The position numbers and the translations under genes are program-made. DNA of 64,000 bases, from NCBI GenBank assembly GCA_965202625.1, contig CBDBBI010000010.1, forward strand, positions 2,304,001 to 2,368,000. The letters run 5' to 3'. This document shows, piece after piece, positions 28,456 through 48,558 of this stretch (position 1 is its first letter; every line of letters begins with the position of its first letter). The notes beneath the pieces were generated by a model. The model was not told where the DNA came from. It worked only from the letters and a program-made list of their open reading frames with translations, and did no database searches. Origin of the DNA: a bacterium. GTDB lineage: Bacteria > UBA8248.

Positions 28456-29016
28456 ATGGAAGGCCCCATTGACGGACACACCACGTCCACCGTCCCCGGC
28501 GAGCGCGTCATCGACAAACCCGAACTCCCCCCCAAGGGACTCTACACGGATCATATCGTCGACACCGAGATGGTGGAGGGCTCCCTGCAGCTCAAGCGCG
28601 GCAAGGCCGGAGCGTATGAGATATTCTGCGACGAGGGTGCGCACATCGGAGGGACGGCGAAATATCCCTCGCCGATGGCCTACCTGGCGATGGCGACGGG
28701 GTTCTGACTGCTCACCCAGGTGTCGCGGTACGCGCACATGATGAAACTCGCCGTCAAGGGGGCGAGCGTCTCGGTTCGGTTTCGGAAAATTCTGGGCGGC
28801 TCCGTCCTCAAGGGCACGGTGTTCAACAAGTGGGAGGGCGTGGACACGCACCTGTGCGTGGAATCGGACGCACCGAAAGAGAAGCTCGCCCACCTCATCA
28901 AGAACGCCAAGAACGGATGCTTCGCCGAGGGCCTCATCACCCAGCCGGTACCCTTGCACTCCACCGTGGAGGTGAACGGCGCGCCTTTCCCCATCGAGGG
29001 GGTGACGACCGACTAG
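28456..29016 (+). CDS. OsmC-like protein, probable selenoprotein (UGA at 28705-28707, Sec84)
   Basis: PSPMAYLAMATGF-TGA-LLTQVSRYA continues in frame to AKNGCFAE; RBS AAGGAG; hairpin follows the TGA. Confidence 0.85.
28720..28737 (+). promoter_or_regulatory. Candidate SECIS hairpin
   Basis: GTG-T-CGCG-GTA-CGCG-CAC starting at +13 after TGA; bulged U, G-first loop. Confidence 0.65.
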
Positions 29017-29135
29017 ACTCCGGCCGCCGCCTCGCCCCACGAAGCCGAGGCGATGCGGCGGGCCGAAGTCCCTGCCGAAGCGCGCTTATGGAGAAACAGA
29101 CGGGGGAGCCGGAACAAGAACCTGCGGCTGGTTTT

Positions 29136-29386
29136 TCACCCATATCTTGCCTCTATCGCCGGCAATGAAATGATAGGCGGTGAGAACGTCCTGTTGATGT
29201 GAATTCTATTCGTCGTCAGGGGATGTTCCAGGCTGGGCGGCTGATATTGCACCGGCTCCTCTTCCTTGTGAGTCGGCAATTCGTAAAGCCTGCTCACTTC
29301 CACGTATTGCTGATACTGCTTTTTCACCTCTTCCAACGTCGCCATGTAATCATCGGAGATTTTTCTTTCTTGTTTTTTTGAGACAT
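29136..29386 (-). CDS. Small AT-rich hypothetical protein; RBS-linked ATG is out of frame at an A7 run
   Basis: AGGAGG-AAACC-ATG TCT CAA AAA AAC; the long frame (…DDYMATLEEVKKQYQQY…) is -1 relative to it. Confidence 0.35.
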
Positions 29387-29713
29387 GGTTTCCTCCTTTC
29401 TCTTTCTCCTTTCCCATATTCAAGATAAGTCTCACATACCGCACAGGCAAAATCCAGGGTTCTGCACCTTGAGATGAAGCGATCATCATCCTTTTATCGA
29501 TCCCCCCAAGCCTGCGCACAGGAGGCTTTCTGCCGCGTCTTCGGCGTTTTCATCCAGCTCTGCTCGGGTCGGTCAAGCGCAAAACGTTTCCGTATGCCGA
29601 CGTCTTCCGAAAAACGACCGCAATCGCCCGTTCCCCCATTCCGGAGAACTGCTGTAGAATGGCACCCTCGACGTTTGCAAAAAGAAGCAGCCCCCATTCT
29701 GGATGGAGTTCTC

Positions 29714-30166
29714 ATGGAATACTTCGACGCATCAGAAGACGTCTCTTTCGGCTCGCAGCCCGCCCTTGAGGACCTCAAGGCACTCGCCGCCAGAGGAGTC
29801 GCGACCATCATCAACACCCGCTTTCCGGACGAGGAGCAGGGCGCCCTTCCGCCGGCGCGCGCCAGAACCGAGGCCGAAGCCCTGGGGATGCGATACCTCA
29901 ACATTCCCGTCTCGCCCGTAGAGTTCAGCGAGGATTCGCTCGCCGAGGTGGGCCGGGCACTGCGCGAGGCGAAAGCCCACGGCCCCGCCTTCGTCCACTG
30001 AAAGGCGACGGGGCGGGCCGGGATTTGCTCGCTGCATCATCTGGCGGATGAAGAGGACTGGACGGGAGAGGAGATGGAAAAGGCGGCGGACGCCACCGGC
30101 TACAACTGGCGCGAAGCGCGGCTCGCCGAGAAATTTCGGGAGTTTTTCGCCAGGCGGAGGAGATAA
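29714..30166 (+). CDS. DUF442/Blh (TIGR01244-like) sulfurtransferase/phosphatase-fold protein, probable selenoprotein (UGA at 29999-30001, Sec96)
   Basis: QP..EDL..LA..GV.TIINTRFPDE, YLNIPV, then PAFVH-TGA-KATGRAG (family HCxSGxR); 54 further sense codons to TAA 30166. Confidence 0.82.
30012..30033 (+). promoter_or_regulatory. Candidate SECIS hairpin
   Basis: GGCGGGC-CGGGATTT-GCTCGCT, 7-bp stem starting at +11 after TGA. Confidence 0.55.
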
Positions 30167-30368
30167 GCCCTTCCGGCGCGCAAGAAACGAAGCCTGCCTT
30201 CTCAAAATTTCCGCGCGACGTCCGCCCGGGCACCGCACGCAAAGGCGACCGGCGGAGGGATACAGAGCCTCCCACCCGGTCTATGCAAGAGCGTTTCCGA
30301 AGGGGAGCATTGCGTGCAAGCGCGCCGACTGGCGCCGGCGGACGAACGGAAGCAAAACTTCCGTCCCT

Positions 30369-31856
30369 TCAGGTGCTGGCCCGCCGCCGCCTCCCCCGGC
30401 GGAAGATGCCGTCGTAGAACGTGAACAGGGAGACGCAGAGCAGCACGGTTCCGACGGGGCTTGCGAGGAAGGACCAGAACGGCTTGTTCTCGAAGGTGAT
30501 CAGCGCGCGGCGCAGGTTCTCATCCGCCAGGGAGCCCAGAATGACGGCCAGAACCATGGGCGCCAGCGGAAGGCCAAGGCTGCGAAAAACGTAGCCGGCG
30601 AACCCCGCAGCCAGCATGACGTAGACGTCGAACATGCTCAGGCGCACCGCATACGCCCCCAGAATACATATGGGGATGATGATGGGCATCAGCAGGGTGC
30701 GCGGCAGGCTGTAGAGCTTGATCGCCGGCTTCACCAGCAGGAGACCGAACACGTACATCAGGAAGTTCGCCACGACGAGTGCCCCGTAGATGAAGTAGAT
30801 CAGCCCGGGGTTCTCGATGTTGATGGTGGGGCCCATCACCACGTGCTTGAGCTCAAGAGCGGCCATGAAGGCGGCGGCGGGCGGACTGCCCGGAATCCCC
30901 AGCGTGAGCGTGGGAAGGATGGTTCCGCCGATGCAGGCGTTGTTCGCCACCTCCCCGCACACGATGCCCTCGTAGCTCCCCTTGCCGAATTTCGCGCGTT
31001 CCTCGGGGCTGGCCCGGCGCTTGCCCACGTCGTAGGCGACGAAGGCGGCGATGTTTCCGCCCGCTCCGGGAATGGCGCCTATCACCGTGCCGATGATTCC
31101 CGAGCGCACCGAGGAGCGCGCGTAGCGCCACAGCATGGTGAAGGGGGGCACCACCCGGCCCACCTTCTCGGGAATCGCGGGCGGCTCTCGCTGCGGCAGC
31201 ACCCAGAGCACCTCGGTGAGTCCGAAAAAGCCGATGATCACCGGAATATAGCTGATGCCGTCCTCCAGGAGCACGCTCCCGAAGGTGAAGCGCGGGACGC
31301 CGTATATGTTGTCGAGCCCCACGTAGGCGATGAGAAGCCCCAGCCAGCCCGATATCCAGCCCTTGATGGGCGTCTCGCCCGAGGTGAGCGTTCCGCAGAT
31401 GGCGATTCCCCACAGGGCGAGGAGGAACATCTCCCAGGAGCGAAACTGCAAAGCGATGAACAGGACGAGGGGAATGAACGCCACCAGGAGCAGGATGCCC
31501 ACCCAGTTTCCGAGAAAAGAAGCCACCAGGGCGGTGCCGAGCGCCAGACCGCCCTCTCCCCTTTGGGCGAGGGGATACCCCTCGATCATCGTGGGAACGG
31601 CGGCGGGCGTGCCGGGAATGTTGATGAGCACCGCGGTGATCGAACCGCCAAAGACGCTCGCCGTATACACCCCCAGCAGGAACATGATGGCCACGTCCTG
31701 GCTCATCTGGGTGGAAAGGCCGATGAGCAGCACCATGGACATGGTCGTCGAGATGCCCGGCATCGAACCCCACAGCAACCCCAGTATCGTGCCCAGAATA
31801 CAGACGAGCACCAGATACGGGTTTAATGCGTAGATGAGCTGCTCTATGAAAAACAT
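30369..31856 (-). CDS. tctA: Tripartite tricarboxylate transporter large permease
   Basis: INIPGTPAA, EVANNA, LTLGIPGS; many TM helices. Confidence 0.92.
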   Translation of the reverse strand: MFFIEQLIYALNPYLVLVCILGTILGLLWGSMPGISTTMSMVLLIGLSTQMSQDVAIMFLLGVYTASVFGGSITAVLINIPGTPAAVPTMIEGYPLAQRGEGGLALGTALVASFLGNWVGILLLVAFIPLVLFIALQFRSWEMFLLALWGIAICGTLTSGETPIKGWISGWLGLLIAYVGLDNIYGVPRFTFGSVLLEDGISYIPVIIGFFGLTEVLWVLPQREPPAIPEKVGRVVPPFTMLWRYARSSVRSGIIGTVIGAIPGAGGNIAAFVAYDVGKRRASPEERAKFGKGSYEGIVCGEVANNACIGGTILPTLTLGIPGSPPAAAFMAALELKHVVMGPTINIENPGLIYFIYGALVVANFLMYVFGLLLVKPAIKLYSLPRTLLMPIIIPICILGAYAVRLSMFDVYVMLAAGFAGYVFRSLGLPLAPMVLAVILGSLADENLRRALITFENKPFWSFLASPVGTVLLCVSLFTFYDGIFRRGRRRRAST

Positions 31857-31859
31857 GGG

Positions 31860-32459
31860 CTATCCCGAACCCGGCAGAGGAATCCTGAACCCGTAGCGAA
31901 ACGCTGCGGCCAGAACGAGCGTGGAAATTGCGGCGACGAGAAGGCACCGCATAAAGGACTTCGGCCAGAAGATGCGCAGCACGATCGCCAGGGCGGGGAT
32001 GGTGACGGCCTCAAAGCTGCTGAAGCCGAACCGCCAGCCCGCAACCCCCAGCGGAATTGCGACGTCGAACGTCACCCAGTCGATGAGAAGCACGTAAAGG
32101 ACCGCCAGCCCCATCAGGATGAGTGCCCACTGGTTCTCATAATCGCCAAAATAGCCGCGCAGCAATTCTCCGGGAGAGAAGCCCGCCCCCGTCCAGGCGC
32201 CCTTTTTGAGGGCGCTCACTCCGAGGCCGACCGCCATCACCAGCAAACTCAAGCCCGTGAGAAAGGGCATGAAGCCCGGTGCGGTGAAGACGTTCGCCTC
32301 CGGATTGGGCATGCGCAGCCCCAGAATGATGGCGAGAACGGCAACGGCTCCCACAACGCCTGCCGCCGCCAGGTCCTTTCTCGCCCCGGCTGGGTCTCCC
32401 CCCTCCGCAGGCTTTGCGGGAAGAGGGGTCTTGCGGTCATCGTCGTTTGAGGAAACCAT
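31860..32459 (-). CDS. tctB: TctB-like small permease
   Basis: About four TM helices, APGFMP, FRIPLP C-terminus; between tctC and tctA. Confidence 0.7.
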   Translation of the reverse strand: MVSSNDDDRKTPLPAKPAEGGDPAGARKDLAAAGVVGAVAVLAIILGLRMPNPEANVFTAPGFMPFLTGLSLLVMAVGLGVSALKKGAWTGAGFSPGELLRGYFGDYENQWALILMGLAVLYVLLIDWVTFDVAIPLGVAGWRFGFSSFEAVTIPALAIVLRIFWPKSFMRCLLVAAISTLVLAAAFRYGFRIPLPGSG

Positions 32460-32565
32460 GCGATTATTCCGGCGTATATCGAGACCAAGGAAACCCGCCT
32501 GCTTCGGGCGCGTCGTCTCATCTTTTGAGCGGGGCACCCGAAGCAGACGCTGCGCGAAAAGCCGC

Positions 32566-33714
32566 CTAGCTCATGCGCGGCGTATAGCCTTTGGGCGGCC
32601 ACCAGGCGTCGAAATCCTTCGGAGCGGGAAGCCCGAGTTCCTCGGGCCCGCGCACCTTTTTGCCGATGTGCTTTTGCAGCTTGAGCAGGGTGGTGGCACT
32701 CAGGCTCTCCAGCTGCGCGGCGCGGCGATCGGCGTCCGCGCCCACGCGAATGTCGCTCTGGAAATACTTGCGCTTCGCGATCTTCGTGAAAGCGTCGGAC
32801 TTCGCAGCGGCGATCCAGGCGGGCTTGATCTTGTTGAGCGCCTCGACCGGCGTCTGCCGCCGCACCGCGATGCTGTAGGTTCCCCCCATGGGCGTCAGCG
32901 CCTTGAGGGCGGGTATGTAGTTGGCCACGGTATACGCCTTTCCGTAGTCGGGAATGTCCAGATCCTCCGGGCCCGTTTGCATGAGGTTTCTCAGTTTGCC
33001 CGCCCGGAAGAACTCGACGTGCTCATGCACGCCGCCGCCGGCGATGTCCACCTCGCCCTGCAGGCCGGCGACGGTCGCCGGCTTTCCGCCCTTGTAGGGG
33101 ACGAAGCGCAGCTCGATTCCCGCCGCGTCAGCGACGATGGCGCCCACCTCGTGCCAGATGCTGCCTACGCCCGACGTCGATATGGTGATCTGGCCGGATT
33201 TCTTCTTGGCCGCGGCTATCACGTCCTCAAAAGTCTTGAAGGGAGAGTCCGGACGCACCGACCAGCTCGCGAGCGAGGTCGCCGCCGCGAAATGCTGCCA
33301 GTCCATCCACGCCGCCGAATCCGCGTATCCCATCGGCCGGACGAACTTGTTGTAGTTCGCCGCTCCCAGCCACGTGTAGCCATCCGCCGCCTTGTTGAGC
33401 ACGTAGCGGGTAGCCACGCCGCCGACCGACCCCGGGCGGTTGATGGCGTTTATGGCCCAGCCGGTCGAGCGCGCCATCTCTCCCACGAGGGTGCGGATGA
33501 CGGTGTCCGTGCCGCCGCCCGCCGAATACATGACGACGGTGGTGATGGGACGCGCGGGCCAGCCGGCGGCACCCGCCTTGCGCGTCGTGAACGCGAGCGG
33601 TACTGCCGCCGCCGCACCCGCCGCACCGAGGGTTCGAATGAAGCTTCGGCGCGTGATGTGGGATGATTCGGGAACGATGATTCCCGAATCGTCCGGGGGT
33701 GTGTTTCTGGACAT
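32566..33714 (-). CDS. tctC: TctC/Bug substrate-binding protein with Tat signal
   Basis: TRRSFI twin-arginine motif, WPARPIT..SAGGGTD, VPYKGG. Confidence 0.9.
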   Translation of the reverse strand: MSRNTPPDDSGIIVPESSHITRRSFIRTLGAAGAAAAVPLAFTTRKAGAAGWPARPITTVVMYSAGGGTDTVIRTLVGEMARSTGWAINAINRPGSVGGVATRYVLNKAADGYTWLGAANYNKFVRPMGYADSAAWMDWQHFAAATSLASWSVRPDSPFKTFEDVIAAAKKKSGQITISTSGVGSIWHEVGAIVADAAGIELRFVPYKGGKPATVAGLQGEVDIAGGGVHEHVEFFRAGKLRNLMQTGPEDLDIPDYGKAYTVANYIPALKALTPMGGTYSIAVRRQTPVEALNKIKPAWIAAAKSDAFTKIAKRKYFQSDIRVGADADRRAAQLESLSATTLLKLQKHIGKKVRGPEELGLPAPKDFDAWWPPKGYTPRMS

Positions 33715-34348: not shown

Positions 34349-36904
34349 TCAGAACTCAGTCCGCCAGCCCGTCATCAGGTTGAGGGCGGGCTTCGCGTCC
34401 GCGTGTCCAGGGTTGTGCGAGACGATCACCCCCGCGCGCAGCTCGCCGCCGAACACGCCCTTTCGGCGCCAGCGCGTCGATACGTCAATTTGCCGCACAG
34501 AGGGGACGAGGCTGGCCGAGAACGAATCGCTGAGCACCGCGCCGTCCCTGCCGCGTCCGACCGGCAGGGTGAGCCGCGCCGAGCCGCTCTCTACCCGGGG
34601 CGGCTGGGATACGGAAAGCACCACCTCGTCGCGATCGCCCAGGCGGCGGCTGGCGCGCAGCGAGACCGCACTCGTAGTCAGCCTCGAGAAGTCGTCGATG
34701 ATTCCGCCGCCCACGCCCGGGGCGACCAGACCGATCTCGGCGTCCAGAGCGAGGCGCCACCCGCCGAACTCGGCGGCCGCCTCAAAGCCGGCGAAAAGGT
34801 TGTCCGCAGAGAGGCTGCCGAACGCGCCGTCCGCCCTGGAGCCCAGCACGGTTTCCTCCTCACGGAGCCACCCCAGGCGCACTCCGAAGGGCGTCTCCGC
34901 CGGCCGCCAGGCGAGCAGGGCGCCGATTTCCGAGGCCTGGCTCCCCCGGTCGTGGTCGGGGGCGGCGAACATGGTCGCCTCCAGCCCGTTTCGCGCTCTG
35001 AAGGCGAGGGTCAAGGCGTTCTCGGCGACGTTGAGCAGGCTACTCTCGGCACTGCCCGGCGATCCGGACGAGGCGAATCGCCATCCGCCCCGATGGACGG
35101 CGCGCGCATGGGCACCGAGCGAGGTACGCGTCCCGCGCGCGGCGGTCCAATCCGCCTCCTTCGGCGCCATGAGATCGCTCAGCTGCCGCAGGCCGGAAGA
35201 GCGGCCCGCACTCCAGGCGAAGTCCGAAGCCTTGAACCAGAACGGCGCGCCGAGGGAGTCGAACGCGGCGATCTCGCGCCCGGCCAGTGCGCGCCTGAAT
35301 ACGTCCCCGAAAGCGGCGCCCGTCTGGAGGGAGGTGGTGCGGACGTCCTCTCCTCCGGGGGCGTCCGCGCGCGCGCTCGTCGAAATCCGCGCTGTGCCCA
35401 CCGGCGAGACCGCCGCGCCCAGGTCCATCATCCCCTGCCCGTAAATGGAGGAATAGGGCGTGCCGTCGTCGGCGGTGCTGTCCGGCGCATAGACGTCGCT
35501 CTTGTCTGCGGTCGCAAAGAGGCGCGTCAACAGCTCCCTGTTGGTGAGCTGATTCCGGAAGAAATGTTTCATCAGGGCAAGACCGCCGGAGACCATGGGC
35601 GTGGCAGCGGAGGTGCCTCTGAAGATGATGAGGTCGAAATCCGTCTGGGGACCGAAGTAGGCACTTATGACGTCGACCCCGGGGGCGGCGATGCACCAGG
35701 GGCCGGCGATTCCGCAGCGGTTGGAGAAACTGGCGATTTCGCCGCTCCGGTCCGTGGCGACGGCGACGACGTTGTGCCCCTGAAGTTCAGGCAGCAAGGC
35801 GACTATCCCGGCGTCAACGTTGGGCGAGGTCGCCCGATGGCTGTAGCCCGTGGTACTGCCGGAATCGGCGAAGCAATTCTGATCTTGGGGGCCATCGCAT
35901 TCCGCGCCGTGGTCGTTGCCTGCGGACCAGACGAATATGGCCGGATTCTCAACGCCTGTTTGTGCTACCGGTGCCACGTCATCTAACACCTCATCGAAAA
36001 GGGCGGACCCGCGTAGTGGTCCCCCCACATCATAATTCTCGACGAAGGTGGACTGGATAGCGAGGCTGTTGTTCACAATGTCCACGCCGCTTTGCAGAAT
36101 GGCGCGATACGCCGCGGCATAATCGAACGAGCTTATCTCGCTTGCCGAAAAGTAGTCGGTGATGGGTGCGGTGAACACCTTGAAATCCGCACCCCAGGCG
36201 AGACCGGTGAAACCCCCTCGTCCGGGCTGGGCGGCCATGATGCCCGTGACGGCCGTCCCATGCGAAAGACTATTCAGAGTGGGGAAACCCGCTAGCACCT
36301 CATCCGGCAGCCCCTGCAGGAGCGTTTCGGTGATGCGCGCGCCGGTGAATAGGATATGGCCGAGATCGACGCCCGAATCCAGAACGCCGATGCGGACTCC
36401 GGCGCCCGGACGCGCGTCCATGCCGTGCTTCACCTGTATCGCCGCGTGCGCCTCGTCCGCGTTGAGTGCTCCCAGACCCCACTGTCTTTGAAAATCAGAG
36501 GTCGCCGCAATCTGATCGGCGATCGGATCGCGCCGACTGTAGAATTCACTCTCCGAGATGCATCCATGGTCGGCAGTCTGAATGCAGGCGCCAGTCGGAG
36601 GGGGAGGATCAGGATCAGTCACAGGCGGAGGTGGAGGCGGAGGAGGTGGAGGTGGTGGAGGTGGAGGATCAGGCGCAGGAGTAGGTGTGGGATCAGGCGT
36701 GGGAGTAGGTGTGGGAGTAGGTGTCGGAGTGGGTGTCGGAGTGGGTGTCGGAGTGGGAGTGGGCGTGGGGTTAGGCGTCGGAGTGGGGATAGGAGCAGGT
36801 GAAGCGGCTGAACCGCCGCCTCCGCCGCCTCCGCAGCCGGTTAACGCCGCCCAGAACAACAGCAGCGCAAAGCAGGAAGCAAGTCTGCAAGTTTGGAAGA
36901 ACAT
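34349..36904 (-). CDS. S8 subtilisin-like serine protease lipoprotein with Pro/Thr linker and C-terminal beta-barrel-like domain
   Basis: LTGC lipobox; GVLDSG, HGTAV, SAGN, GTSAATP catalytic motifs; terminal WRTEF. Confidence 0.9.
36620..36795 (-). repeat. Low-complexity (Pro-Thr)n / poly-Pro coding repeat
   Basis: GGAGTGGGTGTC-type 12-mers and GGAGGT repeats. Confidence 0.85.
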
Positions 36905-37333
36905 AGGCTTTTCCTCATATCGTGGACTATATCGTGGGCTGCGAATGCGCGTGAAGGTGAGGGGCGATTCTATGCAATCCAGGAGGGGAAGTCCATGCGA
37001 TTTCACGCGGGCATCTACTGCCCTGGCCGCGCGATGAGGTGAGGAGGAGAACGGAAAAAGACGGCTGGGCACGCCCGCCTGGCGGCGGCACTGTTTTCTG
37101 GAACTGGCGTTGTTCTTCGCCGTTCTGGGCGTGAACCTGCCCCCGGAGCCTGGGTTCGAGACGCTCCGGACTCCAGGCGGGATCGTCCGCTTCAGACGCC
37201 ACGTTTTCTCCAGCGAACCGGAGATGGGCGCTCGTCCGCTCGTCAAGCCTCACGCAGTCGCGCATGACTGTGATAGGATGAGCGTCCGTTCTGGATGAGA
37301 GAACATCACCCGAATCAGAAGGAAGCGCGAGAC

Positions 37334-39069: not shown

Positions 39070-40142
39070 TATTTTTGCTCGGCAGAGTGCATCAATCCCA
39101 TTTGGCATTGACGAGATACGGCTTCCGCGAAATCGGGCGGCAGCGCGTTTCCGACGACGTTGCAGACGTGTTCCATGTATGGTGTATCGAAACGATAATT
39201 TTCGGGGAAGGTTTGCAGTAGTGCGGCCTCACGAACGGAGATCGTTCTATCCTGTATCGGATGTCCGAACCGGCCCTTGCTGAACGTCGTGCATCCGCCG
39301 GTGATCGTAGGCGACGGCTGATCCCACTTCATGCGGCCGTATACGTTCGTGAACCCCTCGTAGCCGCCTTGGTGACAACTCGGCCTTAACCGCTCGGGGA
39401 TGCTCGTCCAGGTCTTTCCTGCTTTCGCAACCTTGATGCGCTTCACGTTCTCCGGGGAAAGCGTTCGCACGACGTGCCAATCCGAGAGTCGCACTTCTCC
39501 GCGCTCCTTGGCTTCCCGCAAGGTGACCGGCTCGGCCACACGACCAATCGCGTCTTTCACTGTTTTCCAGCGATTCAGCCCATTTTCGCCATTTCTCGAG
39601 TGCGTTCGCATTGGCATATCAATCTTGAAGCCGAGTCCGCCCAGCAACACCAAACGCCGTCGAAGCTGCGGAACCCCATAGTCGGCGACTTGCAGCACGT
39701 CGTCCGTCAGATCGTAGCCGATCCCTTGAAGCCGCCGCTTCAACTCTTCATAGCGCGGCGCACCTTTCTTGGCCAAGCCGGGCACGTTTTCCATCATGAG
39801 GGCTCGCGGCTTCATCTCTTCCGCCAAGCGCGCCATCTCGAAGATCAGATCGTTTCGGTCGTCGTCTTTTCGATATTTGACAGTCAGGCTCGTAAAGCCC
39901 TGGCAAGGCGGACACCCCGCCAGTAAATCAATGCTCTTTTTGCCGGTGAGGCCCAGCAGACGTTCGCCTGAAAAGGTGGCGACGTCTTCCTTCAAAGCGC
40001 GAACTTCTGGATGATTCGCTCGATAGGTCGCGTAGGAGTGTTCCTCAATTTCAATCGCCGCCACTACGTCGAACCCGGCCCGCTTCAAACCTACGGTCAG
40101 GCCCCCGCCCCCAGCGAACAGATCGATTGCCGCAAGTGCCAT
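39069..40142 (-). CDS. dcm: DNA (cytosine-5) methyltransferase
   Basis: DLFAGGGG, GCPPCQGF, ENV, PQLRRR, REAALLQTFP, GNA. Confidence 0.95.
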   Translation of the reverse strand: MALAAIDLFAGGGGLTVGLKRAGFDVVAAIEIEEHSYATYRANHPEVRALKEDVATFSGERLLGLTGKKSIDLLAGCPPCQGFTSLTVKYRKDDDRNDLIFEMARLAEEMKPRALMMENVPGLAKKGAPRYEELKRRLQGIGYDLTDDVLQVADYGVPQLRRRLVLLGGLGFKIDMPMRTHSRNGENGLNRWKTVKDAIGRVAEPVTLREAKERGEVRLSDWHVVRTLSPENVKRIKVAKAGKTWTSIPERLRPSCHQGGYEGFTNVYGRMKWDQPSPTITGGCTTFSKGRFGHPIQDRTISVREAALLQTFPENYRFDTPYMEHVCNVVGNALPPDFAEAVSRQCQMGLMHSAEQK

Positions 40143-40150
40143 GCTAACGA

Positions 40151-42265
40151 TTACCTCTTAGAGGAAACCAACGTGCGTTGCTGCTCGGCCTCGTCCAAGA
40201 AGTCTTTGTGCATGTTTTCAGTCCGTCGCAGAAAGCTTCGCCAATTAAAGTAGGTCAACTTCTTCTGGTCCGTATAGCCATTATAGGCGGCACGCTGAGA
40301 ACCCGTTAAAGCGATCTCATCGCAAACAAGGGTGATGTGGAAATCACGAAATGATTTTTGAAAAATCGCATTTGCCTTGTCGTGTAAGAACAAATCCATC
40401 GAGTCGTAATACGTGACGATCCTGTCCATCTCTTCGTTCGTGAGCTTATGGTGAGGTTTCTTGATCTCGACGATCTGAACTATCCCTTCTTGGCTTGTCA
40501 AAACGAAATCTGGTCTCTTATTCGGATCGTGGAAATCAGACAAAGAAATAGATTGTCCCTGTTCCTTTTCATAGTGTTTCTCAAATTCTGTTCTCAGGCT
40601 ATTGAGTGATTGATTCGCAATTACCGGCGCCCATTCGGGGTTGACGAGCCAAGGGGCGTTTTCTATCAAATTCTGTAAGCAGACTTCCTTGGTACTCTCT
40701 TCGTCTTTTAGCTTTTTTAGACGATTGATGACGTTAAGACGACCCTCGGCAATCCGGCCAAACGACGAGAGTTCCGCAATGCGAGCGGTTCGCAAGAGAG
40801 AGCTAAGCATCGCAAGAGGCGTTTCTGTTTGCTTGGCGGCATCCCTCATCTTTTTATCAAGGGTGATGTGTGGGGCGAAAGTTATGCTTAGATTAACAAG
40901 ATCATCTGCTACGCTTGCATCTTCCGCCTCCGCGCGACTGATAGATCGTCCGAATATTTTGGCTACTTCGGTTGCCCGATCCCGGATCTCTTGTTGGGCA
41001 TCGTTCGGAAAACTCTCCCGAATACGCTCACAGACACGCCCGGTCTCAAAAAATAAATCTAAAGTGGCTTTTCTCATCGGGTCTCGGGATAGAGTCCCAA
41101 TGTGCGCAACTATACTTTGTCCCCATTTTTGAAACGCGAAACCGAGCTCGTCGGACCAAAGGATGTCCCGCCGATCCGTTTGAATTAAATCTTCGTCCTC
41201 GTCAAGCCAATCCGCGTGTAACTCGCCCACCAGATAAGAACGGACGTTGTGCTCTCCTGTAAAACCAGCGCGCTTGTTAAACACCATCGTTTGGGCGGCG
41301 ATTTTTCCGCGGCAATAAATTCTTACTCCAGCCATCAAGTCGTCTTTATATGGTTCTTTTGAATACGCCATCCAACCACTTATAGGATAGGGCTCTTGAT
41401 CATGCTCGAAGCCTGCTTGAAGAACGTTGATCGTATTGCCGTCGGGCCCGATGACTTCTCCTTGCCCTGTGTTGCTATTCTGCTGAAACAAGATGTTCGT
41501 ATTCGGCATCTTAGGAACGTCGAACTTACCGACGTTCCTAAGATGGTCTGGGTCGGAAGGGCATTTAGTATTGTCCTGAAGAACTATCCGCCAATTCTTG
41601 GACTGAATGCCAAACCGCTGGGCAATCTGTCGGGAGAGAGTTTGAACGTCGGGAACCTGCCGGTAATTGAAATCTTTCAGTATTACCTTCGTTCCGGTCT
41701 TGTCTCTAAGTGTATCATCCAGATTTCCAACACTTGGCTTGTACTGTTCGTCTGGTTCTCCGTTCTCGGCAACGATTTGATCATATTTGAGAATGACGTG
41801 CGACGTTAAGTATCCGCTTTCTGTCGTTCTGTTTTCTTCTCGAGTGATCTTTGAGCCACCAGCGCTTATCACCTCTATAATCTTGCAGATTCCGAAGGGT
41901 GCCAGTTTGCCAACGCCTTTCCTTCCCATGACCTTTCGCTTGTGGATCGGGGAAGTTGGGCCTCGACGGGAATCCGTTCTCCGCTCGGCGCCAACGAGCA
42001 GGAAAAAGCTCTGCATTTCTTTCGGCGTCATACCGGTTCCATCGTCTTCGACTTCTATCGTGAGATTCTTGTCCCTAAGGGTACCTTTCGCCCTTGTTGC
42101 AAGATACTGTCCCATCGGTGCGCACACGAAAACTTCCTTGGCATCGGCGTCGTAAGAGTTCGCAATGAGCTCGGCGATGACCGCGGATACCTTGTCGTAG
42201 AGTTTCACGCCGAGTTTGTCGACCGTGAGTCGGGATATCCTCATCGTATATTCGTTAGTCATCAC
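40151..42265 (-). CDS. GHKL (MORC-like) ATPase with C-terminal PD-(D/E)xK nuclease-like domain
   Basis: ELIANSYDADA, DDGTGM, GRKGVGKLA; C-terminal RPDFVL..IVEIKKP; low GC. Confidence 0.85.
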   Translation of the reverse strand: MMTNEYTMRISRLTVDKLGVKLYDKVSAVIAELIANSYDADAKEVFVCAPMGQYLATRAKGTLRDKNLTIEVEDDGTGMTPKEMQSFFLLVGAERRTDSRRGPTSPIHKRKVMGRKGVGKLAPFGICKIIEVISAGGSKITREENRTTESGYLTSHVILKYDQIVAENGEPDEQYKPSVGNLDDTLRDKTGTKVILKDFNYRQVPDVQTLSRQIAQRFGIQSKNWRIVLQDNTKCPSDPDHLRNVGKFDVPKMPNTNILFQQNSNTGQGEVIGPDGNTINVLQAGFEHDQEPYPISGWMAYSKEPYKDDLMAGVRIYCRGKIAAQTMVFNKRAGFTGEHNVRSYLVGELHADWLDEDEDLIQTDRRDILWSDELGFAFQKWGQSIVAHIGTLSRDPMRKATLDLFFETGRVCERIRESFPNDAQQEIRDRATEVAKIFGRSISRAEAEDASVADDLVNLSITFAPHITLDKKMRDAAKQTETPLAMLSSLLRTARIAELSSFGRIAEGRLNVINRLKKLKDEESTKEVCLQNLIENAPWLVNPEWAPVIANQSLNSLRTEFEKHYEKEQGQSISLSDFHDPNKRPDFVLTSQEGIVQIVEIKKPHHKLTNEEMDRIVTYYDSMDLFLHDKANAIFQKSFRDFHITLVCDEIALTGSQRAAYNGYTDQKKLTYFNWRSFLRRTENMHKDFLDEAEQQRTLVSSKR

Positions 42266-43156: not shown

Positions 43157-44131
43157 TTATTTCGTCATCGCCTTGATGAGTTCCGTGAAGCCGTCGAAAT
43201 TCTGCTTCCGCATCTTGTCGTATTCCGCCCCTTCCACGAACTCCACCCCCTCGCCGATGCTGCGCATGAAGCGCTTGAAGGATTTGTTCGCCGTGAGCTT
43301 CACGAAAGCGGCGCGCAGCATCTCGAGCCGCTCTGCGGGTATTTGGGACGGCGCCATGAAGATGCGGTCCATCCGGAAGCTGACGCCCTTGTAGCCGAGC
43401 TCCTCCGTCGTGGGAATGTCCTTGAAGTCCTTGTCGCTGGAGAGACGCTTGTCGCCCGTGAGGGCGAGGACGGTGATCTTCCCCGCCAGCAGATGCGGAC
43501 GCAGCTGGGTGGGGAACCCGATGCCCACGTCGTCTTGTCCGGAGAGGACGGCGCGAAGCGAGGGGCCGCCGCCCTTGTGCGGAATGAAGTTCACCTTGAT
43601 GCCTGCCGCGCGCACGAACTGCATGGAGGGCACGTGTCCCGCTCCCCAGACGCCGCTGTGGCCCCAGTTGACCTTGCCCGGATTTTTCTTCGCGTAGGCG
43701 ACGAACTCCTCCATGGACTTCCATGGCTTGCTCGCCAGAGAGAAGAACAGCGGCTGTGCGTGGTTGATTTTGGCGATGGCCGAGAAATCGTGCATCGTGT
43801 CGAACGGAACCTTGCGCGTCTGCGGCACGAGCTGATCGAAGCCGTTGTGGCTGAACAGGATGGTGTATCCATCGGGCTTGGCCTTGGCCACGAAGCCCGT
43901 GCCCTTCATGCCCGCTCCGCCCGGCACGAGCTTCACGATCATGGGCTGGGCGAGAATGTCGGCGATGATGCTGGTGATGCCGCGCGCGTGCAGGTCGTGG
44001 CTGCCCCCGGCGCCCACGGGCAAAACGAGCGTGATGGGGCGATCCGGATAGGCCGCGATGCTTGCGGAGGGCATCGCCAGTGCGACGATGAGCGCAAGGG
44101 CGGCCAGGACGCCAAAAGAACGTTTTTTCAT
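43157..44131 (-). CDS. tctC: TctC/Bug substrate-binding protein
   Basis: Signal peptide, YPDRPITLVLPVGAGGSHD, IPHKGGG. Confidence 0.92.
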   Translation of the reverse strand: MKKRSFGVLAALALIVALAMPSASIAAYPDRPITLVLPVGAGGSHDLHARGITSIIADILAQPMIVKLVPGGAGMKGTGFVAKAKPDGYTILFSHNGFDQLVPQTRKVPFDTMHDFSAIAKINHAQPLFFSLASKPWKSMEEFVAYAKKNPGKVNWGHSGVWGAGHVPSMQFVRAAGIKVNFIPHKGGGPSLRAVLSGQDDVGIGFPTQLRPHLLAGKITVLALTGDKRLSSDKDFKDIPTTEELGYKGVSFRMDRIFMAPSQIPAERLEMLRAAFVKLTANKSFKRFMRSIGEGVEFVEGAEYDKMRKQNFDGFTELIKAMTK

Positions 44132-44154
44132 GGTGGTTCTCCTTGAATATGCCC

Positions 44155-45660
44155 TCAGGAGGGGACGGGCCCCTTGGCCCGCCGCCACATCGGACGAAGA
44201 ATGAGATACAAGACCCAAATCAGCGCGGCCACCAGAAAGGCGGACGCGATCGGCCTTTGAACGAAGAAATACGCGAAAGGAGCGCCTTTCGCATACAGCA
44301 TCGACTGACTCAAACGATACTCTATCGGCTCGGCCAGAACAAAAGCGATGATGAGAGGCGCGAGGTCGAACCCGAACTTCCTTAAAACATAGGCGCATAC
44401 GCCGATGATGACCATCAGGATCACGTCCGTGTTCGAGCCCGTGGAGAGCGTGCCCACGAAGGCCAGCGCCACGATGACGGGAATGAGATACGCCTTTTTC
44501 AGCTGAATGGCCCTCGTGAAGGGCTTGAGCAGAACGTATCCCAGAAAGAAGAACAGCACGTTGGCCAGCACCATGGTGAGGATCAGCGCATACATCAGCG
44601 CGCCCTGCTCCTGGAAAATCTGCGGGCCCGGCCGCATTCCGTGCGCGACGAACGCCCCCAGCAGAATGGCCGTCACGTTGTCTCCCGGAATTCCCAGAGT
44701 CAGCAGGGGAACCAGGGTGGGCCCGTTGACGGCGTTGTTCGCCGCCTCCGGTGCCGCGATGCCGTCGAGTGCGCCCTTGCCGAACTCCTCCGGATTTTTC
44801 GCCGCGTGCTTCGCCGCGCTGTAGCCGATGAAGGCGGCCACCACCTGCCCCACGCCCGGCACCATGCCGATTCCCGTCCCGATGGCCGTGGAGCGCAGGA
44901 TGCTGCGAATCGACGCCTTGAACTCGCCCCAGCGCAGGCGCTCTCCCGTTTTGGCGAGGTTCACGTGCTCGCTGATGAAGCGCGCGGTTCGCGATTCCAC
45001 CGCCTCGAGAACCTCCGGCATGGCGAATATGCCGATGGCCAGGGGAATGAGGGGGATGCCCGCGCTGAGCGCCTCGAGGCCGAACGTCATTCGGGTGGCG
45101 CCGGTGGTGGCGTCCGTGCCGATGAACCCCAGTCCCATGCCGATGCAGGCGGCGATGGCTCCCTTGAGGCCCGAGTCGCTCGAGACGCTGGCGATGAGCA
45201 CCAGCGAGAAGAGGATGACGGCGAACACCTCCGGCGGGCCAATCAACAGCGTGACGATGGCGATGGGGCCGATCAGCGCGAGGGTGAAGACGTCCGAGAG
45301 CGTATCGGCGATGGTGGAGGAGAACAGCGCCATCTCCAGGGCTTTTCGCCCCTCGCCCTTGCGGGTGAGCGCGGGTCCGTCGAAAGTCGTGGCGATGGAG
45401 GCGCCCGTTCCGGGGATGCCGACCAGAATCGCCGGAATGCTGCCCCCGTAAATCCCCCCCTTGTAGATGCCGATCAAGAAGGGGATGCCGAGCAGGGGTT
45501 CGAGCTTGAAGGAGATGGGAAGAAGAACCGACATGGCCAGAATGGTGGTGAGGCCGGGCATGGCGCCCACGAACATGCCGATGGCCAGCCCCGCGCTGAT
45601 ATACAGATAGGTGTCTATCCGCATCAGGAGGGTGAAGGCCTGCATGAAGGAGTCCAGCAA
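44155..45660 (-). CDS. tctA: Tripartite tricarboxylate transporter large permease
   Basis: GIPGTGAS, PEAANNA, LTLGIPGD. Confidence 0.93.
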   Translation of the reverse strand: MLDSFMQAFTLLMRIDTYLYISAGLAIGMFVGAMPGLTTILAMSVLLPISFKLEPLLGIPFLIGIYKGGIYGGSIPAILVGIPGTGASIATTFDGPALTRKGEGRKALEMALFSSTIADTLSDVFTLALIGPIAIVTLLIGPPEVFAVILFSLVLIASVSSDSGLKGAIAACIGMGLGFIGTDATTGATRMTFGLEALSAGIPLIPLAIGIFAMPEVLEAVESRTARFISEHVNLAKTGERLRWGEFKASIRSILRSTAIGTGIGMVPGVGQVVAAFIGYSAAKHAAKNPEEFGKGALDGIAAPEAANNAVNGPTLVPLLTLGIPGDNVTAILLGAFVAHGMRPGPQIFQEQGALMYALILTMVLANVLFFFLGYVLLKPFTRAIQLKKAYLIPVIVALAFVGTLSTGSNTDVILMVIIGVCAYVLRKFGFDLAPLIIAFVLAEPIEYRLSQSMLYAKGAPFAYFFVQRPIASAFLVAALIWVLYLILRPMWRRAKGPVPS

Positions 45661-45672
45661 AACCCGTCTCCC

Positions 45673-46260
45673 TTACGTCCCCAGAAAGACGCTGGACAAA
45701 AACCGCATGATCGCGTCCTCCACGATGGCGATGGATTCGAATTCGCTCCTCGGCAGCGAGATGAGCAGCAGCCTTTCGAAGACGAAGCGAATCACGATGG
45801 GCATGAGGATGGCGACGGGTGCGATAATGTGCGCCTGGCGAACCCCCAGATAGAGGATCGCCGCACCCGCCATCAGCAGGGTGGAGAGGCCGTAGCCGAA
45901 GCGCGAGACGAACACGGCGTAGGCGGCGATGATGATGGCCATTCTCGCCCCTCGGAGGAATCGCGCCTTCTCGGCGGGGTCGGCGGGGTCGGCGGCGCGC
46001 TGGCGCGCTGGCGCCCTGTGCCAGGCGTTCAGCAGGTAGCACAGGCACAGCCCGGTGAGCACGGCGAACGCGAGCCTGGGGAAGAAAATGGGCGAGAGGG
46101 TGATGAAATCCTGGGCGGAGGAGATGCCGCCGGAGGCGATCAGATACGGCATGAAGGCGAAGAGGCACGCTGCGATGAGCGACAGCGCGGCGGCGAAGTA
46201 AATTTCCAGGCGCATCAGCATGGGGCTCGCCGCGTGCGCCGATTCCTCGTCCGAAGGCAT
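45673..46260 (-). CDS. tctB: TctB small permease
   Basis: SPIFFPR, FERLLLISLP; TM helices. Confidence 0.8.
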   Translation of the reverse strand: MPSDEESAHAASPMLMRLEIYFAAALSLIAACLFAFMPYLIASGGISSAQDFITLSPIFFPRLAFAVLTGLCLCYLLNAWHRAPARQRAADPADPAEKARFLRGARMAIIIAAYAVFVSRFGYGLSTLLMAGAAILYLGVRQAHIIAPVAILMPIVIRFVFERLLLISLPRSEFESIAIVEDAIMRFLSSVFLGT

Positions 46261-46457
46261 GGGCTTATCCTGCCGGGTGCGGTCTTTCGTCGTCGCCAAC
46301 CCCAAAACTCTCCCCATCGTCTGACGAAGTGGCGGGATTCGAGAGATGCGCGTATTATTCATCAATCGGTTGGCGAGGGCAAACATGCATTCCATTTCGT
46401 CAAGCGCGCGTTTCTGCGAGGGCAGGCGGGCGGGGGCGAAGGAGGGGAGGGCGACTT

Positions 46458-46841
46458 GTGAAGATCATCAATTCCATGAGCGTGGGCAAGGACGACGCCT
46501 ATGAGCCTCCCTACTCCATCATGTGGGGGGTGAACGATGAGACGACGGACACCAGGGTGATGACCATGCAGCGCACCATCATTCCTCCGGGCGGAAAGAA
46601 CAGAATGCACACCCACGCGTGCGACGCGGTGTTTTACGTGAACAAGGGGCCGATTTACGTCTTTTGCGGCGATCCGGAAAATCCGGAAAAACATCTCGTC
46701 GAAGCCGGCCATTTCTGCTACGCACCCGCCGGCGAGCCGCACGGCCAGGAAAACCCGAGCCAGACCGAACCCGCTGAACTCATCGCCACTTACGGAAACT
46801 GCTCCCACCAGGACAAGGCGGGCACCGCCTTCGTGGAGTAG
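46458..46841 (+). CDS. Cupin domain protein
   Basis: PPGG..MHTH.CD.VFYV..G, PAGEPHGQEN; GGAGG RBS, GTG start. Confidence 0.85.
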   Translation: MKIINSMSVGKDDAYEPPYSIMWGVNDETTDTRVMTMQRTIIPPGGKNRMHTHACDAVFYVNKGPIYVFCGDPENPEKHLVEAGHFCYAPAGEPHGQENPSQTEPAELIATYGNCSHQDKAGTAFVE

Positions 46842-46870
46842 CGTCCCGTCAGCGAAACCATGGAGCCATC

Positions 46871-47626
46871 ATGATGGACCGAGGGATATGGGCGGCTTGG
46901 TATGATCTGCCGGAAGATAGAAAAGAAGACTATTGCGCGTGGCTGCATGGGGACTATCTGCCCGCCGCGTTGAGGCGCGCGGGTTTTCTGTGGGCGGCAC
47001 ATTATGAAATCACGGGAGGCGGTGCGCAGATGGAGCGGGTCCAAGCCGACGCGCTCACCTACGCCGAGGGCGGGACTGTCCCCTCCGGAACGCAGTTCGC
47101 GCTTCTTTTCGGAGCGGCGTCTCCCCACGTGTTCTTTGATCCGCTGATGGAGGAGGTCGAGGGGGAGGAGGGCGAGGAGGCGCGCGCCATGCTGCGTCTG
47201 CGCGCGGGGTTGCGCACCTGCGTGTTCAGCGAGGAGGTGCGCGTCGATGGCCCCGAGGTGGGGGCGAGAGCACCCGGAATCACGCCGGGGCCCGCGATGC
47301 AAATGGGGCAGTTTCTGGCGGAAGACGCGGCGGCGGAGTGCGACCTGGGGGCGTGGTACGCCCGGTATCGCCTGAAATTCATGGAGGGGATGCCGGGCTG
47401 CATCGGTGCGCGGAAGCTCCTCTCCGCGGCCGGTTGGGCCAAGCATTCGATCCTGTATGAGTTCACCTCGCTCGAGGCGAGACACGAGGGCTTCCAGAAG
47501 CATGAGAGCCTCTCGCTGGACGCAAGCGGGTGGTCGGGCCGCGTGGTGCGCAAACTCGTCCACGCTCCCGGCAGTCCGAGCGTGGGCCGCCGGCTGTGGC
47601 CTCCCGTGAGCGGTGAGGCGACCTAG
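46871..47626 (+). CDS. EthD/DUF4286-like protein (distant relative of 948-1658)
   Basis: WYDL....DYCAWLHGDYLP...GF, second repeat AWY...MPG. Confidence 0.55.
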   Translation: MMDRGIWAAWYDLPEDRKEDYCAWLHGDYLPAALRRAGFLWAAHYEITGGGAQMERVQADALTYAEGGTVPSGTQFALLFGAASPHVFFDPLMEEVEGEEGEEARAMLRLRAGLRTCVFSEEVRVDGPEVGARAPGITPGPAMQMGQFLAEDAAAECDLGAWYARYRLKFMEGMPGCIGARKLLSAAGWAKHSILYEFTSLEARHEGFQKHESLSLDASGWSGRVVRKLVHAPGSPSVGRRLWPPVSGEAT

Positions 47627-47910
47627 AAGGCGCGTCCCCAGGCCGAAGCGGCCGTTCGACGCCCGCCCCAGAATGCCTCATCCGCCTGGCGAGGAGCCAG
47701 GACTGGGCCCGTTCGTCCCGCTATCAGACGCCCATGAATCGGGCTTTGATCGCATCGTTTGCGGCGACCTTCCGGAGAATGGAGAGACCTGCGGTGCGGC
47801 CTTGATTCAGGGCGTGAGCGCAATCCCATGAGGTGTGCGCGAACTTCATGCTCCGCCGAGCAGTGCGGTTGCTTTCTGACGGATCACACCTAAAGAAGGA
47901 GGAAAACGGC

Positions 47911-48558
47911 ATGGCGCAACTACCGATTCTGAGCGATGAGGAGGCGGGACCCGAGGCCGGAGTGGTGTTCGACGCGAGCCGACGGATGTTTGGCCGCGTG
48001 GCCAACGCGATACGGATGAGTGCGGCCAGCCCCAGAATGCTGCAGCCGCTTTTTGGTTTCTTGATCTCGCTGTGCCGGGCCGAGATCACCGACGTGCTCG
48101 ACGCCAAGACGAAGGCGCTTTTGATTCTCAAGACGTCCATGGAGAACGGGTGCAAGTACTGAACGGCTCACAACGTCACGTTCGGTCGGGCGTGCGGGCT
48201 GTCGGATGCGCAAATCGACGCCGTGAGAGACGATGCGTATCAAGAATCGGATTTGTTCACAGACGCCGAGAAGGCGGTGATCGCCTGGGCACATCACCTC
48301 ACGAAATACACCTTCGCCCAGAACCCGCAGGTTCTGGAGAACATGAAGAAGCACTACGATGACGCCCAGGTTGTCGAGGCGACGCTCGTTTCCGGCTATT
48401 TCAACATGTGGAACCGCTTCACCGACGCGCTGGAGAGCGACGTGGAGGGCACGGATCAGATGCGTCTTTTCACGCAATCCGTCGTGATCGACAAAAAAGA
48501 CTTTGCGGATTTCATGAACGACTGTTGGTGGGCAAAGGAGGGTGTGCCCGAGAAGTAG
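47911..48558 (+). CDS. AhpD/carboxymuconolactone decarboxylase family protein, probable selenoprotein (CxxU, UGA 48160-48162)
   Basis: KTSMENGCKY-TGA-TAHN in frame with GLSDAQI..FTDAEKA..FNMWNRF; RBS AAGGAGG. Confidence 0.88.
48177..48194 (+). promoter_or_regulatory. Candidate SECIS hairpin
   Basis: CACGTTC-GGTC-GGGCGTG starting at +15 after TGA; GGUC apical loop. Confidence 0.65.

Follow-up and report, generated by a model that had tools for sequence, protein, structure and literature searches.

The SECIS element of the Escherichia coli fdhF type is a hairpin lying just 3′ of the UGA codon, with GGU(C) in its apical loop. A bacterial element of this sort, located inside the coding sequence some 11–15 nt past the UGA, would recruit SelB carrying Sec-tRNA(Sec). 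Two families of redox selenoproteins, the OsmC-like proteins (pattern UxxT) and the AhpD-like proteins (pattern CxxU), are listed in a 2026 review of prokaryotic selenoproteomes (PMC13188914). DUF442 domains, by comparison, have been described from experiment, in their Cys forms, as sulfur transferases whose thiosulfate:cyanide or persulfide transfer needs the active-site cysteine (PMC5823870, PMC9163753). According to Table 2 of a 2026 database paper (PMC13326102), three genomes of the UBA8248 lineage, labelled Nitrospinota or Nitrospinaceae, are among the selenoprotein-richest known. Relatives of the genome considered here are likewise labelled Nitrospinota or Nitrospinaceae.

The window analysed is a stretch of 64,000 nucleotides from a UBA8248 bacterium (assembly GCA_965202625.1, contig CBDBBI010000010.1, positions 2,304,001 to 2,368,000). 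It harbours an OsmC-like, a DUF442-like and an AhpD-like gene (Table 1). The initial annotation had assigned to each a single in-frame TGA within a characteristic motif, followed by an intact frame ending in TAG or TAA, and the coordinates were borne out for all three. We estimate a probability of about 0.95 that these are functional selenoprotein genes in which translation inserts selenocysteine (Sec) at the catalytic UGA. The observations are the UGA and its conservation, the pairing of Sec with Cys in homologues, purifying selection downstream, constraint at the RNA level after the UGA, and the presence of the Sec machinery. The OsmC-like and AhpD-like genes belong to selenoprotein families already published; the DUF442-type appears to be the new one.

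Table 1. Features of the three genes, in window coordinates; signed numbers are nucleotides relative to the UGA.
Feature	Position	Strand	Details
OsmC-related selenoprotein gene	28456..29016	+	186 codons, Sec at codon 84; NF041052 and Pfam OsmC; ATG 28456, stop TAG 29014-29016
Sec-UGA of OsmC-like gene	28705..28707	+	in frame; GF-U-LLTQ, residue 84
SECIS-like hairpin, OsmC-like	28720..28737	+	stem +16 to +33 with bulged U; loop GGUAC/GUA +23 to +27, starting at +23/24; -8.1 kcal/mol
DUF442/BLH_phosphatase-like (PTP-fold sulfur-transferase-like) selenoprotein gene	29714..30166	+	150 codons, Sec at codon 96, H-U-x4-R loop; ATG 29714, stop TAA 30164-30166
Sec-UGA of DUF442-like gene	29999..30001	+	in frame; VH-U-KATGR, residue 96
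SECIS-like hairpin, DUF442-like	30010..30035	+	core stem +14-20 with +29-35 (stem limits +12/14 to +35/37); loop CGGGAUUU +21 to +28; -13.1 kcal/mol
AhpD/CMD-like selenoprotein gene	47911..48558	+	215 codons, C-x-x-U-x-x-H motif, Sec at codon 84; ATG 47911, stop TAG 48556-48558
Sec-UGA of AhpD-like gene	48160..48162	+	in frame; CKY-U-TAH, residue 84
SECIS-like hairpin, AhpD-like	48174..48196	+	stem +18-24 with +29-35 and two outer pairs (limits +15 to +37); loop GGUC +25 to +28; -10.7 kcal/mol

The OsmC-like gene is an ordinary member of its family, without notable difference from it: the product matches NCBIfam NF041052 (OsmC_like_Se) at 165.8 bits, well above the cut-off of 95 and over model positions 4–144 of 144, and its U-L-L-T sequence fits the UxxT pattern. 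The Pfam OsmC match of the read-through product (45.8 bits, cut-off 27.5) spans the TGA. Against PDB 3cje, U84 stands at the first conserved Cys, and the gene keeps the second one, within GCF. The product would be a thiol (here selenol) peroxidase in which Sec replaces the first conserved Cys. At least three OsmC-like paralogues are present in the same genome.

The AhpD-like product shares with the AhpD-like/CMD-like selenoproteins (TIGR01926, PF02627, NF041238, NF053654) the CMD domain, the C-x-x-U-x-x-H signature, here C-K-Y-U-T-A-H in accord with the CxxC(U)xxH of the AhpD/CMD family, and a U on the second Cys. The PF02627 match (35.6 bits, cut-off 23) spans the TGA, and U84 pairs with the second Cys of CxxC in 2ijc and 7xw1. 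In contrast, the product reaches the cut-off of no specific NCBIfam model. NF053654 (YciW-related) scores best, with 55.1 against 310 bits, and NF041238 (AhpD-related (seleno)protein) gives 26.9 against 175; the product is therefore placed in a separate subfamily. The family is strongly expanded in the phylum, with seven matches in the present genome and as many as 18 in relatives. An AhpD/CMD-type C-x-x-U oxidoreductase is the predicted product.

The DUF442-like product matches PF04273 (BLH_phosphatase/DUF442) at 46.5 bits (cut-off 26.1) over residues 7–102, a span that includes U96, and remains below the cut-off of every NCBIfam model that it hits, TIGR01244 included (46.8 against 85.85 bits). 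An AlphaFold2 model (pLDDT 75.7, pTM 0.69) retrieved 2f46 as its best Foldseek match (E 1.3e-4, TM 0.59), an atypical DSP as the second and 3gxh, a DUF442 protein, as the third; the fold is PTP-like, and the alignments show the H-C-x4-R loop. Cys occupies the Sec position in 13 of 13 full-length homologues, and the 3gxg and 2f46 alignments, whose E-values are weak, place Cys there as well. The pairing of TGA with Cys that the initial annotation had proposed as a check was thus found in all three families. A further Cys, nine residues after Sec, is invariant in the DUF442-like protein, kept in the closest Cys-form and missing from the other 12 aligned Cys-forms: it is subfamily-specific and may serve as a resolving residue.

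A comparison with characterized sulfur-transfer enzymes is instructive. The DUF442-like protein has PF04273, the PTP-like fold and the H-C-x4-R loop in common with the DUF442 domains of Blh (Xylella/Agrobacterium) and of Cupriavidus pinatubonensis SQR, and the loop nucleophile stands at nearly the same residue number (U96 and Cys94, the active-site Cys of SQR). It differs in having Sec instead of the nucleophilic Cys, in being a stand-alone protein of 150 residues with the extra Cys, and in that its activity is predicted: the product would be a PTP-fold sulfur transferase whose P-loop nucleophile is Sec. Rhodanese selenoproteins (UxxG forms, PF00581) are expected to perform the same chemistry, a Sec within a short loop of the Cys/Sec-x4-Arg type accepting the sulfane sulfur; however, the rhodanese fold differs from the PTP/DUF442 fold, and they are therefore functional analogues and not family members. 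A rhodanese-type candidate with U-Q-T-G-Y-R, in a 3-mercaptopyruvate-sulfurtransferase-like protein, is also encoded in the genome.

The hairpins that the initial annotation had described after each TGA are present about where it placed them, but taken alone they are weak evidence. Minimum free energy z-scores of the 61-nt stretches are unexceptional (-0.20 for OsmC, -0.35 for DUF442 and -0.07 for AhpD), and among 1500 in-frame Cys codons taken from this genome as controls, 17%, 3.2% and 7.1%, respectively, are followed by a qualifying hairpin that is just as good. Hairpin energy is therefore not above chance, and it is conservation that supports the elements. Over codons +1 to +12 the synonymous pair-difference drops to 0.10 in the OsmC-like gene as against 0.376 in the rest of the gene (rank 2nd of 173 sliding windows), to 0.141 against 0.276 elsewhere in the DUF442-like gene (7th of 137), and to 0.133 against 0.274 in the AhpD-like gene (9th of 197).

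Covariation is clear for the AhpD-like hairpin and thin for the OsmC-like one. In the former, taken over 23 orthologues and paralogues, the share of paired cells is 93.8%, as opposed to 80.4% in shuffles (0 of 500 reaching the observed value) and 24–58% in slid controls, and four of the seven pairs have changed on both sides. In the latter, 33 sequences give 87.9% paired cells; three pairs have changed on both sides, pair 20–30 occurring as C-G, G-C and A-U, which is compensatory; the covariation amounts to four cells, and slides of ±2 still pair 72–73%, the stem being a GC repeat. The DUF442-like stem is invariant in 40 sequences save for positions +14 and +18, which are G or A and face U in both cases, with the remaining variation in the loop: these changes are wobble-compatible, no double compensatory change occurs, and the invariance is not wholly distinguishable from conservation of the encoded peptide, GRAG-x-CSL. 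Each hairpin would expose an apical loop containing GG(U) between +21 and +28. They share with the fdhF type the GGU(C)-like loop and a loop G/U about 20–25 nt from the UGA, the bulged U of the OsmC-like stem being a further common trait; the fdhF loop lies one codon nearer the UGA than the AhpD-like loop, and the DUF442 hairpin departs in its 8-nt loop.

All four components of the Sec machinery that the initial annotation had proposed to look for are encoded in the genome: selB (361 bits), selA (565 bits), selD (333 bits) and the tRNA-Sec gene selC (75.8 bits, anticodon TCA), each above its curated cut-off. The selD gene itself has an in-frame TGA as the Sec codon of an AGG-U-GSK motif. TGA is also the commonest ordinary stop, closing 821 of 1615 open reading frames of at least 350 codons, so that codon reassignment, already discounted in the initial annotation, does not apply. 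Approximately 30 selenoprotein candidates were counted across the genome; the organism is selenoprotein-rich, as had been supposed. Sec insertion and SelB binding are predicted for all three genes, as are the enzyme activities of their products.

If the TGAs were inactivating nonsense mutations or assembly errors, the three genes would be pseudogenes, and public gene calls would seem to agree, since they end at the TGA: of 46 close DUF442-like relatives in the protein collection, 45 are products of 95 residues, the split that the initial annotation had foreseen. This explanation is refuted by conservation and its likelihood is minute. The same TGA occupies the same codon in independent assemblies of 35–48 genomes, and the site of all three is the catalytic Cys. 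Relatives retain TGA instead of TGC or TGT: it is kept in 57 of 57 DUF442-like matches covering the site (found in 35 of the phylum's 51 genomes), at an identical codon position in 20/20 orthologues and 20/20 further relatives, in all 150 OsmC-like matches listed, phylum-wide, and in all 150 listed for the AhpD-like gene, for which 224 more matches exist. In five of the 20 DUF442 orthologues the terminal stop is TGA too. The downstream frames are intact and their 3′ parts are under purifying selection, as the initial annotation had required, with dN/dS of 0.18 (OsmC), 0.23 (DUF442) and 0.34 (AhpD); the 5′ parts give 0.18, 0.17 and 0.11. These values derive from pairwise comparisons, made without gaps, against the gene of the window, pairs with dS of 0 or ≥3 being dropped (2–3 per OsmC set, and one for AhpD in the 3′ sets).

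A genuine stop at UGA, with a shortened N-terminal domain and a C-terminal piece started on its own as separate polypeptides, draws on some relatives that have an ATG directly after the TGA, where gene calling gave a C-terminal ORF of 53 residues. The window's three genes, however, have neither a start codon directly after the TGA nor a purine-rich ribosome site before the first downstream in-frame ATG; in the DUF442-like model the break would cut a single fold at the active-site loop, and the Cys-containing homologues are single chains. Separate halves are accordingly very improbable. Hardly better are the prospects of a near-cognate or suppressor tRNA inserting Cys or Trp at the UGA: nothing specific speaks for it. 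On DNA alone, bacterial decoding of UGA as Sec looks the same as decoding as Cys; the complete Sec machinery including a tRNA-Sec with anticodon TCA, the position-specific RNA constraint just past the UGA, the membership in selenoprotein families known from NCBIfam and from the table of PMC13188914, and the role of TGA as the main stop codon all favour decoding as selenocysteine.

The DUF442-type family appears to be unlisted: NCBIfam has no selenoprotein model for it, the main text of PMC13188914 (table included) and of PMC13326102 makes no mention of it, supplements and the BSepDB family list being outside this scope, and no paper in the searchable literature links 'selenoprotein' with DUF442, TIGR01244 or PF04273. 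The gene adjoins the OsmC-like gene in 20 of the 23 genomes of the genus, the OsmC-type gene lying upstream at a spacing given as about 25 nt (in the window the latter ends at 29016 and the DUF442-like ATG is at 29714). A joint reading, possible but doubtful, is that an unlisted family with a Sec P-loop nucleophile and a possible resolving Cys at +9 forms with the OsmC-type protein a conserved two-selenoprotein module, a selenol/persulfide relay in which recycling or loading of the OsmC-type peroxidase would fall to the DUF442 protein under peroxide or sulfane-sulfur stress.

The 'hidden selenoproteome' of the initial annotation holds as far as split annotation is concerned, but the richness of the lineage is apparently in print already (PMC13326102, Table 2). 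In this lineage standard gene callers cut dozens of redox genes in two, and metabolic reconstructions therefore miss or mislabel them. To selenoprotein specialists the OsmC-like and AhpD-like cases are routine. With the DUF442 case, the known Sec enzymes would gain a PTP-like fold and a reaction type in which a domain other than rhodanese transfers sulfane sulfur, and the Sec and Cys versions, at 47% identity, offer a natural comparison for what Sec gains in persulfide chemistry. The conserved adjacency of the DUF442-type protein and an OsmC-type selenoperoxidase suggests a functional link that is open to testing.

The OsmC-like, DUF442-like and AhpD-like genes of the window are real selenoprotein genes and belong to a selenoprotein-rich, poorly annotated lineage. 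When TGA is translated as selenocysteine (U) the three frames are intact, and the coordinates, motifs and TAG or TAA ends described in the initial annotation are reproduced. The read-through products correspond to the Pfam families OsmC, BLH_phosphatase (DUF442) and CMD, all above the gathering score and all with matches that span the TGA. The OsmC-like product also scores 165.8 bits (cut-off 95) with the NCBIfam model NF041052, 'OsmC-related (seleno)protein'; the NCBIfam matches of the other two products are all below the model cut-offs.

Features discussed in the text. Positions are window coordinates unless a contig of the window's own genome (G000) is named; U denotes an in-frame TGA read as selenocysteine.
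Feature	Position	Strand	Details
OsmC-like gene	28456-29016	+	TGA 28705-28707, codon 84, GF-U-LLTQ; stop TAG
Spacer between OsmC-like and DUF442-like genes	29017-29713		
DUF442-like gene	29714-30166	+	TGA 29999-30001, codon 96, VH-U-KATGR; stop TAA
TctA, TctB, TctC	30369-33714 and 43157-46168	-	tripartite tricarboxylate transporter; second set putative
Subtilase	34349-37246	-	Peptidase_S8
Vsr endonuclease, methylase, HATPase_c_3 protein	38653-42265	-	three genes in a row
AhpD-like gene	47911-48558	+	TGA 48160-48162, codon 84, CKY-U-TAH; stop TAG
selD	G000 C10:1611050-1612009		outside window; AGG-U-GSK
Ogt (locus L109)	G000 C10:2039704-2040252		outside window; P-U-H-R-V

Alignments with homologues pair a cysteine with the TGA codon in all three genes, placing the UGA at the catalytic residue. 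The solved OsmC-like protein 3cje has its first conserved Cys opposite U84 of the window's OsmC-like protein, which retains the second one (G-C-F). In the two alignments inspected, with 2ijc and 7xw1, U84 of the AhpD-like protein takes the place of the second CxxC cysteine. For the DUF442-like protein, a 10-sequence profile searched against 1.84 billion representatives retrieved 2329 relatives at E <= 0.001; in an alignment of the best of these, the U position is occupied by the Cys of an H-C-x4-R motif in 13 of 13 full-length proteins. Three further entries are truncated at this very site, two of 95 residues ending at the His before U and one of 53 residues beginning right after it. Profile matches in the PDB search were weak (E 0.018-0.16); those to the DUF442 structures 3gxg and 2f46 likewise place this Cys opposite U. 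By contrast with the profile, phmmer with the DUF442-like protein found no match among PDB sequences.

Pseudogenes and sequencing errors are excluded as explanations of the in-frame TGA codons by their conservation across genomes, together with the selection acting downstream of them. Among 51 species genomes of the phylum, the DUF442-like gene occurs in 35, all of one family, and TGA is kept in 57 of the 58 matches listed, the 58th being a contig-end fragment that spans only residues 105-149. In the sequences fetched, the position of the codon is identical in 20 of 20 orthologues and in 20 of 20 paralogues or out-of-genus relatives. For the OsmC-like and AhpD-like genes, TGA is present in 150/150 among the matches listed in each case, with 30 and 224 further matches outside the listing, respectively. 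The 3' halves are under purifying selection, with downstream dN/dS values of 0.18 (OsmC-like), 0.23 (DUF442-like) and 0.34 (AhpD-like), the corresponding upstream values being 0.18, 0.17 and 0.11; these figures derive from comparing each sequence with the gene of the window without gaps, and they exclude the first 12 codons after the TGA and a small number of pairs whose dS was 0 or >= 3. A general reassignment of TGA, which the initial annotation had already discounted, is contradicted by its use as the stop of 821 of the 1615 ORFs of >= 350 codons in the genome; 5 of 20 DUF442 orthologues themselves end in TGA.

The decoding machinery is in place. The genome (3.09 Mb, 10 contigs, 99.7% complete) harbours selA, selB, selD and a tRNA-Sec with anticodon TCA, each above the curated cut-off. 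The selA and selB genes are neighbours located ~30 kb past the window end, and selD contains one in-frame TGA of its own.

The SECIS-like hairpins proposed downstream of each TGA are present, with G-containing loops, but their folding energy taken alone is weak. Since the z-scores of minimum free energy over the 61 nt after the TGA are close to zero (-0.20, -0.35 and -0.07 for the OsmC-like, DUF442-like and AhpD-like genes, in this order throughout), folding energy was abandoned as an argument. A positional score, which requires a single hairpin whose loop starts at +17 to +30 (nucleotides 3' of the TGA) with a G among the first two loop bases, gave -8.1, -13.1 and -10.7 kcal/mol; among 1500 control Cys codons, 17%, 3.2% and 7.1% are followed by a hairpin at least as good, so that on their own the three hairpins remain weak evidence even by this measure. 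Rfam at gathering thresholds had no match at any of the TGA sites; its only matches in the window were an SRP RNA and three tRNAs.

It is evolution, not single-sequence energy, that gives the hairpin signal. Synonymous differences among orthologues fall over codons +1 to +12 relative to the rest of the gene (0.10 versus 0.38, 0.14 versus 0.28 and 0.13 versus 0.27), and in each gene few 12-codon windows have lower values than this stretch. The AhpD-like hairpin (loop GGUC, +25 to +28) is paired in 93.8% of alignment cells across 23 orthologues and paralogues, against 80.4% in shuffles, none of 500 of which reached the observed value; both sides change in four of seven pairs, slid controls pair at 24-58%, and pairing is retained through some changes that alter the protein (Leu-Gly-Gln versus Phe/Leu-Gly-Arg). 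The OsmC-like hairpin (loop GGUAC or GUA, with a bulged U) hardly varies across 33 sequences; C-G, G-C and A-U are all found at pair 20-30, just four cells have changes on both sides, and 72-73% of cells still pair when the hairpin is slid by +/-2. In the DUF442 hairpin, +14-20 pairs with +29-35 around the loop CGGGAUUU; across 40 sequences of 38-84% protein identity the stem varies only at +14 and +18, where G or A faces a U, and the remaining variation is confined to the loop. As this stem encodes G-R-A-G-x-C-S-L, RNA and protein constraint are not fully separable here.

The view of a selenoprotein-rich organism holds at genome scale, with about 30 candidates by a rough count that combines a crude TGA scan with family searches. 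The scan, neither complete nor clean, yielded 299 raw candidates, mostly neighbouring genes sharing a frame, and missed two OsmC-like paralogues recovered by homologue search. Family searches on 43 of the 299 exposed L129 (two fused genes), L130 (UrtB/UrtC), L136 (L16/L29) and L117 (PcaC, which ends ahead of the TGA) as false positives; the same searches matched no family for loci L116, L132-L135, L137 and L138, and gave only weak matches for L131 and L140. The candidates comprise four OsmC-type, about ten AhpD/CMD-type, three UGSC and three or four PrdB/GrdB-like proteins, together with ArsC-family, Ogt, rhodanese, DUF3179, DsbA-like, ResA/Trx-like and deiodinase/Prx-like proteins and SelD. 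Some 20 of them are backed by a model match above a curated cut-off or by strong paralogy to genes of the window, the others by weaker matches or by a motif and hairpin. Copy counts may be slightly inflated, because ORF contexts on the small contigs C2, C3, C7, C8 and C9 are identical to places on C10 (for example C2:13186/C10:2152353 and C9:3430/C10:2487210), which points to repeats or to redundancy in the assembly. The phylum shows a strong expansion of the AhpD-like C-x-x-U family: 374 matches are spread over 48 of 51 genomes, with seven here and as many as 18 in a single relative, and many of the paralogues share the GGUC-loop hairpin at +25. In the Ogt gene (TIGR00589, 101 bits) the TGA replaces the acceptor Cys and is followed by a hairpin; the product would be a suicide repair enzyme that relies on Sec.

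The OsmC-like and DUF442-like genes form a same-strand pair in the genus. Match coordinates in 23 genomes place them 24-28 nt apart in 17 and 76-211 nt apart in three; the pair was not seen in one 79%-complete genome. The junction seems insertion-prone, since the typical distance of about 25 nt becomes about 700 nt in the window's genome and about 6.8 kb in its closest relative. The spacer occurs once in the genome and looks to hold a small minus-strand ORF behind a strong ribosome-binding site. TctA, TctB and TctC genes flank the selenoprotein genes, those at 43-46 kb seeming, from ORF translations, to be a second set. The window also encodes a subtilase with a long Pro/Thr-rich low-complexity stretch ahead of the catalytic domain, and a putative cluster for restriction or defence linked to methylation, made up of a Vsr mismatch endonuclease, a C-5 cytosine DNA methylase and a HATPase_c_3 protein of 704 residues. 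Sampled words from 28400-30200 were shared with sponge metagenome runs (0.58-0.71) and with four marine metatranscriptome runs of one study (28-43%), which offers no more than a hint about habitat and expression.

An AlphaFold model of the DUF442-like protein built from 10 sequences (pLDDT 75.7, pTM 0.69) retrieved 2f46 as the top Foldseek match, followed by an atypical dual-specificity phosphatase, the DUF442 structure 3gxh and other PTP-fold phosphatases (TM 0.5-0.6). An invariant Cys lies nine residues past Sec; it is shared with the nearest Cys-form, P0050 (47% identity), and missing from the other 12 aligned Cys-forms. That it acts as the resolving residue is speculation. Another Cys-form, P0055, is by our own reading of its sequence a fusion with a metallo-beta-lactamase-type domain, and further segments look rhodanese-type.

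Part of this picture is already known. The selenoprotein families tabulated in the review PMC13188914 include OsmC-like (UxxT), AhpD-like and CMD-like (CxxU), Ogt, UGSC, DUF3179 and several rhodanese forms. Lineage richness is likewise published, as Table 2 of PMC13326102 ranks three UBA8248 genomes in the top ten bacteria by selenoprotein genes (54, 50 and 48). The main texts of these two 2026 papers contain no DUF442, PF04273, TIGR01244, phosphatase or sulfur transferase; a literature search never found 'selenoprotein' or 'selenocysteine' together with DUF442, PF04273 or TIGR01244, and NCBIfam has no selenoprotein model for the DUF442 form. DUF442 domains are sulfur transferases by experiment: that of Xylella Blh moves thiosulfate sulfur to cyanide or GSH (PMC5823870), and Cys94 to Ser in the SQR-fused domain of C. 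pinatubonensis abolishes function (PMC9163753). Two of the families, OsmC-like and AhpD-like, and the richness of the lineage are known; novelty may lie solely in the DUF442-type selenoprotein and in how it is paired with the OsmC-type protein.
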